Shown here piece by piece: positions 2,111 to 5,100 of a stretch of 64,000 nucleotides of DNA. How positions within the stretch are numbered: position 1 is the first letter of the stretch; each line of letters begins with the position of its first letter. Made by a program: the position numbers and the translations under genes. This DNA comes from Candidatus Parcubacteria bacterium (lineage in GTDB: Bacteria > Patescibacteriota > Minisyncoccia > Phycocordibacterales > EsbW-18): NCBI GenBank assembly GCA_039798445.1, contig JBDKFZ010000012.1:2407-66406 (forward strand), given 5' to 3'. Below the pieces are notes generated by a model. It had not been told where the DNA came from. It did no database searches and saw only the letters and a program-made list of their open reading frames with translations.

Positions 2111-5100
2111 CCTAACAAGAGAATTCGACGAATTAGTACATCTCGGCTGAACACATTGCTGTGCGTACACCTAATGCCTATCAACGTGATCATCTCTCAC
2201 GGTTCTTAATGATTCCTAATCTTGGAACTGGCTTCCCTCTTAGATGCTTTCAGAGGTTATCCATGCCCGACATAGCTACCCAGCGTTGCCCTTGGCAGAA
2301 CAGCTGGTACACCAGAGGTCAGTTCACTCCGGTCCTCTCGTACTAGGAGCGAATTTCCTCAAGAATCGACGCCTGCAGCAGATAGGAGACCAACCTGTCT
2401 CACGCATGATATCAACAATTACTTGTTGCATTGGACTATAGCTTCATCCCATAAGGATGGCCGACGTTTAGTCTCTACGGGTCTTCTTGCGAAGTTCCCT
2501 CGGTATCACCTTCGAAAAGGCTCCACCGATATAAGTCAGCTTGATCCACGTGCATTGCTGCATGTGGCCGCCGTGATGCGATTGGTTCTCTTTTAACCCC
2601 ATGACAACTCATGAGGAAAAACCAACACGATATCTCTATCATGTATTAGGTTTTTATCTTCGACGAAAAGACTTTTCTTCAATTTTCTTCGGATAGATAA
2701 CATTACTCTCGATTCATCAGGGTTCAGACTGTCCAAGACACGGATCTTCATCCATGAATTCCTGAACGGTCTGAACCCAGCTCACGTACCTCTTTAAATG
2801 GCGAACAGCCATACCCTTGGGACCTTCTCCAGCCCCGGGATGAGGTGAGCCGACATCGAGGTGCCGAACACCGCCGTCGCTGTGGACGCTCGGGCGGTAC
2901 TAGCCTGTTATCCCCAGAGTAGCTTTTATCCGTTGAGCTCCCCCCGCGTCTAATGCGCAGGGTCGGATCACTATGCTCTGCTTTCGCATCTGCTCGACAT
3001 GTCCGTCTTGCAGTTAAACTCCCTTATGCCATTACACTATCGGCACGGTTTCCATTCGCGCCTAGGGAATCTTAATAGACCCCTCCGTTACTTTTTAGGA
3101 GGGATTCGCCCCAAACAAACTACCTACCAGATACTGTTCCCGTGCGTTTTTGCCGCACAGGTTAGAATGCACAACTCAAAAGAATGGTATTTCACTGACG
3201 AGTAACGTACAACCGAAATCATACGCATAACCTCTCCCATCTATTCTACGCAATTGACTCGTGCACCCAATATCAAGCTGTAGTAAAGCTTCTGGGGTCT
3301 TTTCGTCTAGCTGCAGGTAACCGGCATCTTCACCGGTATTGTATTTTCACCGAGCGGGTCCTCGAGACAGTTCCCCAGTCGTTACACCATTCGTGCGCGT
3401 CAGAACTTACCTGACAAGGAATTGCGCTACCTTAGGACCGTTATAGTTACGGCCGACATTCACCAGGGCTTATATAGCTCAGCCTCAACCTTGCGGAAGA
3501 GACCCTCCATAGTTGACCTTCTGGCATTGGTCAGGTGTCACCCCCTATACATCCTCTTACGAGTTCGCAGGGAGCTGTGTTTTTGTTAAACAGTCGCCAG
3601 GGATACTTTCGCTGCGGCCCCTCTTGCGAGGGGCAGGCCTTATCGCTAACTTACGGCCGCTTTTTTGCCGAGTTCCTTGAGGACCTCTCACTCGTTCGCC
3701 TTGGTCTACTCGACCAAACCACCGGAGTCGGTTTGCGGTACGGGTTCCTTGATATTAACTTTAGAAGATTTTCTTGGAGGCGTGCTTTGTATCATTCCCC
3801 AGCACGAGGCTGAGTTCTCGACAACGCTTGGGATAGTGCCAGCCGGATTTACCAAACTGACGCCCTCATGTCGCCGACGCAAATCCAATAATGCGCGATA
3901 CATACTACACCCCGTCTCTCCATCAGATATCCGGGAAGTCATGGAATATTAACCATGTGTCCATCACCTACGGCGTTCGCCATTGGCTTAGGCCCGACTA
4001 ACCCTTCGCTGATTGACATCGCGAAGGAAACCTCGGTTTTTCGGCGTGCGGGGATTTCACCCGCATTGTGGTTACTTGTGCCAACATTCTCTCTTCCCAA
4101 CGCTCCACCGTGGGTCACCCCTTCGGCTTCATCGCGATGGAAATGCTCTCCTACCGCTCATCACACTGAGTGTGATAAACCCTCAACTTCGGTACGATGC
4201 TTAACCCCGATCATCTACGGCGCGGGATCTCTAAGTGAGTGAGCTGTTACGCTTTCTTTAAAGGATGGCTGCTTCTAAGCCAACCTCCTCAATGTCAGAG
4301 AAATCCCACCTCCTCACGTGTACTGAGCATCGATTTAGGGACCTTAATTTGAGATCAAGGGCTGTTTCCCTTTTGACCAGTGGAGCTTAGCCCCCACGGT
4401 CTAACTGCCTGGCATTTAATCTCGAGTATTCGGAGTTTGATTGGTTCAGCGAGCTTTCGCCCTGTCCAAACCATCCAGTGCTCTACCCCTCGAGGGTACG
4501 CTCAGACGCCAGCCCAAAAGCTGTTTCGGAGAGAACCAGCTATTACTAGGTTCGATAAGCTTTTCACTCCAACCCACAAGTCATCCCAAGATTTTGCACC
4601 ATCAACGGGTTCGGGCCTCCCTCCATCTTTCGACAGAGTTCACCCTGCTCATGGGTAGCTCACCTAGCTTCGGGTCTTACGCACACGACTATTAATAGAA
4701 GCTGGAAGCCAGACTTGAAGGCGAACCTTTTTGTCTGACTTCTAGCTTCTATATGTTTCGCGCTATTAACACTCGGTTTCCCTGCAGCTTCATCCGACAA
4801 AGGATTTAGCTTATGCCGCGTGCGTAAACTCGTTGGCTCATTCTTCAATAGGCACGCCATGACGGTCTTGCGACCGCTCTGACTCCTTGTAGGCATATGG
4901 TTTCAGATCTATTTCACTCCCCTTTCCGGGGTTCTTTTCACCTTTCCCTCGCGGTACTAGTTCACTATCGGTCTCTATGTGTATTGAGCCTTGCCAGTTA
5001 GTTCTGGCGGATTCCACCAAGCTATTCGTGTCTTGATGTACTCAGGAACGATAACTAGAAAGTTGCATTCTTTTCGCTTACAGGGCTATTACCTCCTTGG

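Follow-up and report, generated by a model that had tools for sequence, protein, structure and literature searches.

A predicted group I intron without an endonuclease gene in helix 93 of a Patescibacteria 23S rRNA gene, with a remote guide and a candidate exon clamp

Introduction

The group I intron of the Chlamydomonas chloroplast large-subunit rRNA gene (Cr.LSU), which is found with I-CreI, lies at L2593, i.e. after position 2593 of the Escherichia coli 23S rRNA, which we take to be the site of both I-CreI and the cyanobacterial introns. Cyanobacterial L2593 introns are known from Synechococcus sp. C9, S. lividus C1 and Thermosynechococcus elongatus (PMC1995217), and group I introns at 23S position 2593 have already been catalogued in bacteria of the Candidate Phyla Radiation (CPR) under the site name 23IS12 (Tsurumaki et al. 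2024, PMC11270868). In that CPR survey, 45% of the 23S insertions are classed as group I introns, clustered around the peptidyl-transferase centre (PMC11270868). Here we analyze a 361-nucleotide (nt) insertion at L2593 in the 23S rRNA gene carried by a 64-kb stretch of DNA from a Candidatus Parcubacteria bacterium (contig JBDKFZ010000012.1). This whole stretch is referred to below as the window; positions are window coordinates, with (-) denoting the minus strand. We conclude with high confidence that the insertion is a group I intron without a homing-endonuclease gene and that it belongs to a large L2593 family located in helix 93, mainly in Patescibacteria (CPR).

Group II introns, an unrelated ribozyme class, use EBS1 and EBS2 for two-part exon recognition. 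Among group I introns, the large P1 (L1) extensions of the nuclear myxomycete S1389 introns are viewed either as neutral or as vehicles for endonuclease genes (PMC8395846), and extended guide sequences are a feature of engineered trans-splicing ribozymes (PMC3895272, PMC6155759). Only such engineered designs and neutral P1 extensions emerged from our literature search on exon clamps and P1 extensions, which was not exhaustive and which turned up no report of a 5'-exon clamp that is natural and covaries.

Results

Position and boundaries of the insertion

The host 23S rRNA gene occupies 2112..5475 (-) and is a full-length match to Rfam RF02541 (2377 bits). When the gene is aligned to E. coli rrlH with MAFFT, a 361-nt block at 2765..2405 (-) follows E. 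coli U2593, at the same coordinates and site as had been proposed in a preliminary description of this DNA, and the Rfam large-subunit alignment leaves out the same block. The sequence reads GGGUUCAGACCGU (ending at 2766), then UCAGG...AUCAUG (ending at 2405) and then CGUGAGACAGG; in a longer reading of the two junctions, ...GGGUUCAGACCGU is followed by UCAGGAAUUC at the start of the insert, and GAUAUCAUG at its end is followed by CGUGAGACAGGUUGG. The last base of the 5' exon is U and the last base of the insert is G, as the preliminary description had it and as can be read directly from the sequence, and the boundaries are unambiguous and cannot be shifted. The expectation that removal of the insert would recreate the conserved domain V sequence is also borne out, with helix 93 (GACC/GGUU) restored by the deletion. 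The GC content of the intron is 43%, compared with 50% for the 23S gene. A separate JGI metagenome contig (3300046786, Ga0485267_0002443; locus L244) is 100% identical to window positions 1..7452, insert included, and the insert is therefore not an assembly artefact of the window. A single 23S gene is seen in the window, and for annotation it must be entered as two exons.

Group I core

RF00028 and RF00029 were the two Rfam intron models that the preliminary description had put forward for judging the insert. Run in E-value mode, RF00028 (Intron_gpI) matches 2622..2412 with 44.9 bits (E = 3.3e-10), covering model positions 1-253 and spanning P3 to P9; at the gathering threshold Rfam reports only the rRNAs and the tRNA and misses the intron. 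When all Rfam families are scanned, neither RF00029 (group II) nor any other family matches the insert even at E ≤ 10. A family covariance model (R1), built from 43 family cores with the window excluded, has a single match in the 64 kb, at 2586..2395 (173.6 bits, E = 3.6e-48).

The predicted helices were assessed in two alignments, A1 with 13 sequences and A3 with 43 sequences, the window excluded. In A1, 92% of the cells are paired, compared with 33–38% when the partners are slid, and 33 pairs have changed on both sides; the corresponding values for A3, with P9.0 included, are 93% and 33–45%. The P2 hairpin (2546..2567 (-); intron 199-207/212-220, GCAA loop) is supported in A1, where eight of its nine pairs have changes on both sides. 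The catalytic core is placed at 2445..2540 (-) by the RF00028 alignment and by covariation. It comprises P3 (2540..2535 with 2465..2460, compensatory in five of six pairs), P4 (2529..2524/2505..2500, mostly invariant), P5 (2521..2517/2512..2508), P6/P6a (2499..2479), the 5' strand of P7 (2473..2469) and P8 (2459..2445), all on the minus strand, and P5, P6 and P8 are all compensatory. The 3' strand of P7, a helix that is invariant or nearly so in the family, lies at 2438..2434 (-) in the stretch that runs from J8/7 (AAGCUA) to the intron end (2405..2444 (-)), and only 3 nt (AAC) separate P7 from P3' in the window intron. Both-side changes are found in all five pairs of P9, a hairpin with a GUAA loop at 2428..2413 (-), and in all three pairs of P9.0 (2431..2429 with 2408..2406 (-)), which covaries in A3 as GC 19, CG 11, AU 4 and UA 2. 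The terminal G (ωG, G361; 2405 (-)) is invariant in the family, and the window intron keeps every family-invariant base. Judged from the aligned sequences, these pair counts support every predicted helix of the core.

The insert contains no open reading frame (ORF) of 60 aa or more, the longest being 57, 55 and 52 aa, in line with the preliminary description. The 52-aa ORF, which takes up most of L1, was judged non-coding, having no Pfam match and no conservation in relatives. In long relatives of the intron, the P6 loop contains a gene for a single-motif LAGLIDADG protein (…LAGFLDGDGS…). P6a of the window intron has only a GCAA loop on a stem of 4 bp, and a tblastn search with the relatives' endonucleases detects no LAGLIDADG remnant in the window intron. 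The idea that the L1 domain is a decayed endonuclease gene was rejected on the same grounds, namely the location of the relatives' gene in P6 and the negative tblastn result.

Relatives at L2593

We scanned one genome per species with a pattern consisting of J8/7-P7 and the 3' exon, without selecting for the guide sequence. This genome scan yielded 120 loci, of which 52 are insertions exactly at the L2593 site, with lengths of 213–776 nt. A metagenome scan with a core-only pattern added 66 complete introns of 239–451 nt. Most of the hosts belong to Patescibacteria (Parcubacteria, Paceibacteria, Saccharibacteria and other groups). The UCACGGCGG-type family is defined by insertion after E. coli U2593, by the guide UCACGGCGG and by a match to the family covariance model, and the window intron, which was excluded when that model was built, has all three features. 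Most of the family members recovered have no ORF, and the preliminary description's hint that an ORF-less intron at 2593 would be unusual is not upheld, since most relatives in genomes and metagenomes are ORF-less introns of 213–450 nt.

Internal guide

The putative internal guide is UCACGGCGG (2568..2576 (-), intron 190-198), in which UCACG would form the P10 strand and GCGG the P1 strand. It is complementary to the ligated exons CCGU-CGUGA. CCGU, at 5' exon positions -4..-1 (2766..2769 (-)), would be the exon strand of P1 and ends in the splice-site U, U2766, and CGUGA, at 3' exon positions +1..+5 (2404..2400 (-)), would be the target of P10. A G·U pair falls at the junction, with G195 (2571) opposite U2766 within GCGG/CCGU, and P2 comes directly after the guide. 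In the window, a variable domain of 189 nt splits the guide from the 5' splice site, and across the family the guide is found anywhere from 4 to 248 nt from that site.

The nine-mer is present in 31 of the 31 CCGU-type introns from the genome scan, where it had not been selected for. In two members with almost no L1 (L044 and L080), it is the only exon-complementary element. A comparison between sub-families in the genome scan shows GCGG in introns of hosts with exon CCGU and GCGU in those of hosts with exon ACGU, and P10 covaries in that all five introns with the 3' exon CGUAAG have UUACG or AUACG guides. It is because of these observations, together with the layout, that we take UCACG-GCGG to be the probable P1/P10 guide.

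Upstream of the guide, the motif ACCAAUC (2580..2586 (-), intron 180-186) may extend P10 by pairing with GGUUGGU at 3' exon positions +10..+16 (2395..2389 (-)). The motif is conserved as ACCAAYC, complementary to GGUUGGU, in the members with a long L1. Taken by itself, the window does not make the match significant, and the exon stretch is invariant and offers no covariation, so that we make this assignment only tentatively. At the pre-guide position, short-L1 relatives have AAGACAUCA, which resembles the 3' exon GAGACAG itself.

Exon clamp and distal L1 domain

The preliminary description had also pointed to a motif, cagtctgaaccc, as complementary to the 5' exon. The complementarity is real and it is conserved: GUCUGAACCC (intron 37-46, 2729..2720 (-)) is a perfect 10-nt complement of the exon sequence GGGUUCAGAC at positions -13..-4, and a perfect 10-nt exon complement occurs in only 14 of 5000 shuffles of the intron (0.3%). 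The motif itself, UCUGAACCC (2720..2728 (-), intron 38-46), pairs with exon positions -13..-5 (GGGUUCAGA, E. coli 2581-2589; 2770..2778 (-)), and in the window G37 lengthens this clamp to 10 bp. The motif does not, however, appear to be the splice-site guide, a role that we assign to intron 190-198, because three bases separate the end of GUCUGAACCC from the splice site and A, not G, comes to lie opposite the splice-site U. A P1 formed by this motif or by GUGUCU (intron 25-30) was rejected in favour of GCGG at 195-198, as neither gives a splice-site G·U pair.

Of 93 family members, 77 have the clamp in the conserved form UYURARYCC. A single layout is common to nearly all members in which more than ~55 nt precede the guide: a hairpin starting at nt 1 is followed by AC plus two bases and then by UYURARYCC. 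The window intron matches this layout with a hairpin at 1-33, ACAG and UCUGAACCC. In the minimum free energy fold the window hairpin ('P1a', 2733..2765 (-)) consists of stems 1-6/28-33 and 10-16/21-27 with a GAAG loop, and the linker ACAG (2729..2732 (-), intron 34-37) lies opposite exon CCGU. In the family, all seven basal pairs of the nt-1 hairpin have changes on both sides and 86% of the cells are paired. Because the nt-1 hairpin is followed by a clamp motif that pairs with exon -13..-4, the splice site lies inside a long exon–intron hairpin; in the window the exon and intron 1-46 fold into one such hairpin with a free energy of -37.7 kcal/mol (z = -6.4).

Clamp motifs were located by their seven fixed positions only, and the two free positions were then compared with the host exon. 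Exon -8 and the clamp form CG in 67 members and UA in 10, and exon -6 and the clamp form GC in 55, AU in 18 and GU in four, without a mismatch at either position (n = 77). On a neighbour-joining tree of 67 intron cores, the exon states at these two variable pairs have switched at least five and at least seven times, and the covariation is therefore not one inherited event. This comparative evidence establishes the clamp pairing, as the alignments above establish the intron's identity and its predicted helices. Closer to the splice site and in the same 77 members, U-1 faces A in 63 and G in 10 (82% and 13%), G-2 faces C in 70 and U in six, and C-3 is unpaired in 66.

The distal L1 domain extends over 2587..2719 (-) (intron 47-179). 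It contains three blocks shared by many relatives, CGAGAG (2711..2706), UUUUCGUC (2669..2662) and GAUAAAAACC (2658..2649), and folding predicts two hairpins specific to the window, at intron 122-141 (GAGA loop) and 150-169, all on the minus strand. The L1 blocks common to relatives are GAGRR, UUUUCGUYUA and AGAUAGAACC, and GAGRR is retained even in relatives with an L1 of 27 nt. No pairing partners of the conserved blocks were found; pairing of GAGRR with UUUUCGUYUA and a simple hairpin with AGAUAGAA were both considered, and neither holds across the family. A BLAST comparison of the window L1 with 92 relatives matched only the clamp and one short block, and for this reason no covariation model of the distal L1 is possible.

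A second intron type at L2593

A second type of L2593 intron occurs in Acidimicrobiia and a few archaea. It resembles the window intron in its insertion site and in J8/7-P7-P9 and the 3' end (…UAUAGUC…GUAAU…ACAUG), and, as in the window family, the LAGLIDADG gene is located in P6 when it is present. It differs from the window intron in having the host exon AACGU, neither an L1 domain nor a clamp, and a guide (GCGU…; …UCACACUGCGUCC… or …ACAUUGCGUUCUA…) within ~10 nt of the 5' splice site. Members of this sub-family come from Acidimicrobiaceae/Actinomycetota (loci L032, L040, L045, L057, L059, L066, L083, L085, L109 and L115), Saccharibacteria/Patescibacteria (L010, L012, L043 and L071) and Omnitrophica (L053). 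Many copies have a LAGLIDADG gene and some are ORF-less (282–379 nt). To our knowledge, rRNA introns in metagenome-assembled genomes (MAGs) of free-living Actinomycetota have been little discussed. DPANN archaea, too, have insertions at the homologous site of the 23S gene (L070, L073 and L103, from Pacearchaeota, Woesearchaeota and Nanoarchaeota). These share the UAUAGUCC signature of J8/7-P7, but their last base is A, not G.

Host and neighbouring genes

The 23S exons are 78–80% identical to those of Adlerbacteria, Paceibacterota and Nomurabacteria MAGs, compared with 70% for E. coli and Acidimicrobiia, in a comparison set made up of intron-bearing genomes. The gene content, with ComEC, a type IV pilus and large surface proteins, is compatible with Patescibacteria/CPR. 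Several very large ORFs (700–1800 aa) with Big_5, PD40, beta-propeller and cadherin-like domains lie at 8193..20231 and 46638..60310, and genes for ComEC, RecJ, PGK and the type IV pilus proteins PilB and PilC are found near them. This combination of large ORFs and pilus genes is typical of cell-surface-dependent CPR lifestyles.

The rRNA genes are arranged on the minus strand over 1552..5475 in the order 23S, tRNA-Ile(GAU) (1797..1724) and 5S (1659..1552). The tRNA-Ile gene is thus downstream of the 23S gene rather than within a 16S–23S spacer, and no 16S rRNA gene was found within the 64-kb window, from which we conclude that 16S is unlinked. The JGI contig Ga0485267_0002443 (10 kb) reaches 2.6 kb past the window start, where FtsW/RodA, glycosyltransferase and pilin-like genes are located. 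Elsewhere in the 23S gene, a 65-nt expansion after E. coli 654 (4691..4755 (-)) forms a near-perfect long hairpin (-39.5 kcal/mol, z = -7.8) and may represent either an expansion segment or an intervening sequence of the RNase III type. Another expansion, of 52 nt after E. coli 289 (5130..5181), has little structure (z = -0.7).

Discussion

From the anatomy of the intron and established knowledge of group I introns, we infer splicing in vivo by the standard two-step pathway, a strand exchange at the splice site and a role for the clamp as holder of the 5' exon. Before the exchange, the clamp would hold exon -13..-5 and intron 1-33 would be self-paired, leaving CCGU facing ACAG with only two or three weak pairs. 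GCGG (intron 195-198) would then displace ACAG by strand exchange and pair with CCGU to form P1, with the U·G wobble at the splice site, while the clamp and the intron hairpin would remain on either side. The resulting stack of clamp, P1 and hairpin would look much like a normal long P1, except that the L1 domain interrupts its 3' strand. A free guanosine docked in P7 would attack the splice-site bond. UCACG would pair with the first five bases of the 3' exon as P10, which could form without unwinding because its strand is separate from the upper strand of P1. The clamp would keep the 5' exon, weakly bound by the 4-bp P1 alone, until ligation. Finally G361, placed by the 3-bp P9.0, would enter the G site, joining the exons and restoring helix 93.

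This arrangement would amount to a natural two-part, possibly three-part, mode of exon recognition that is undescribed for group I introns, combining a remote P1/P10 guide, the clamp and perhaps ACCAAYC, with the splice site captured from a preformed hairpin by strand exchange. We advance this proposal tentatively, in the awareness that it could well prove wrong. If it is correct, the intron would be complementary to ~29 nt of peptidyl-transferase-centre rRNA (E. coli 2581-2609), and complementarity of this length could favour site-specific reverse splicing of ORF-less copies.

Several observations weigh against these readings. The RF00028 score of 44.9 bits is below the curated gathering cut-off of 50 bits, a shortfall that we attribute to the P1-P2 region, in which the true P2 is taken as an insertion and an L1 hairpin is aligned as P2. 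Because the metagenome search pattern included ACGGCGG, invariance of the guide in that set is by construction. P1 is only 4 bp long and its exon strand is invariant in the family, so that support for the predicted pairing comes from complementarity and from the comparison between sub-families, as opposed to covariation among family members. In formal terms P1 and the clamp cross, which makes the arrangement a pseudoknot. Excision of the intron from 23S rRNA in vivo is something that we infer. The A or G opposite the splice-site U in the local hairpin may point to some role for local pairing. Taken further, this would make the long exon–intron hairpin the functional P1, with ACAG and UCUGAACCC as the internal guide, a U-A pair at the splice site and UCACGGCGG serving only for P10 or exon alignment. 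The hairpin is indeed very stable, conserved and covarying, and A or G opposite U-1 and C or U opposite G-2 occur in 95–99% of members. Group I introns almost always use a G·U pair at the 5' splice site, however, whereas in the hairpin the splice-site U faces A in 82% of members and C-3 has no partner in 66 of 77. GCGG gives the G·U pair and, as in the canonical layout, adjoins both the P10 strand and P2; where L1 is 3–7 nt long, the members have neither hairpin nor clamp, yet keep GCGG; and hosts with exon ACGU have GCGU guides. We therefore consider it unlikely that the hairpin is the functional P1 and favour GCGG in that role.

The alternatives to an active group I intron fare differently with the evidence. 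The insert might stay in the mature 23S rRNA, or it might depend on a host or trans-acting protein and not be self-splicing; the intron is without a maturase or endonuclease gene, and an unspliced L1931 intron in the 23S rRNA of Simkania has been reported (Everett 1999, as cited in PMC11270868). Retention or inactivity nevertheless seems quite unlikely to us, given that the window intron retains all core helices with P9.0 and P10, the terminal G and every base that is invariant in the family, that selection on pairing is evident across the family and that only one 23S gene is seen, in which the insert splits helix 93 beside A2602 of the peptidyl-transferase centre, where 361 extra bases would hardly be tolerated. 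Far less probable is removal by RNase III without ligation, yielding a fragmented 23S rRNA, or a group II intron. At other sites, short rRNA insertions of CPR bacteria are considered to be RNase III-type sequences (PMC11270868), and the same 23S gene has a long hairpin that may be of this kind at 4755..4691. The insert, however, contains a full group I core with covariation and matches no group II or other Rfam family at E ≤ 10, its ends do not pair into the long stem typical of RNase III-processed sequences, and it lies in helix 93, as opposed to the tips of H9, H25 and H45 expected for them. An assembly chimera or contamination comes to mind since the window is metagenomic, and we attach next to no weight to it: the separate JGI contig is identical over 7452 nt with the intron included, the exon flanks are continuous, and related introns, more than 100 in number, are found in other genomes at this very site.

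The existence of this intron is unsurprising and ordinary for CPR bacteria, and its only possible novelty is the clamp architecture. At the standard Rfam cut-off the intron is missed by 5 bits, and the family model together with the motif UCACGGCGG would recover many similar cases. The accessory 5' domain would be a natural, covariation-supported case in which a group I ribozyme supplements a minimal P1 with a remote exon clamp. As such, it bears on how rRNA introns compete with co-transcriptional rRNA folding, on the persistence and spread of ORF-less introns and on the design of trans-splicing ribozymes.

The closest described systems share parts of this architecture. The CPR introns at 23IS12 agree with the window intron in host group, gene, insertion site and the Rfam model that detects them; the survey stresses LAGLIDADG_1 genes at that site, whereas the window copy is ORF-less (PMC11270868). 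The available text of the survey makes no mention of secondary-structure analysis, a split guide or an exon clamp, and its supplement text, as available, has no entries for 2593 (PMC11270868). The cyanobacterial L2593 introns are likewise inserted after U2593 as group I ribozymes that interrupt helix 93, but they are ~745 nt long, with a single-motif LAGLIDADG gene, P7.1/P7.2 extensions and a short P2 (PMC1995217), in contrast to the AAC between P7 and P3', the lack of an ORF and the 189-nt domain before the guide in the window intron. The myxomycete S1389 introns also have a long insertion in the P1 segment (255 nt) that leaves the ribozyme core untouched (PMC8395846); unlike those extensions, the window domain has several conserved blocks, among them one that is paired with the exon and covaries with it. 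The engineered guides resemble the clamp in that a second complementarity to the substrate holds it beside a short P1 (PMC3895272, PMC6155759). They are man-made and pair downstream of the splice site, whereas the clamp of the window intron is natural, lies upstream of P1 and formally crosses it.

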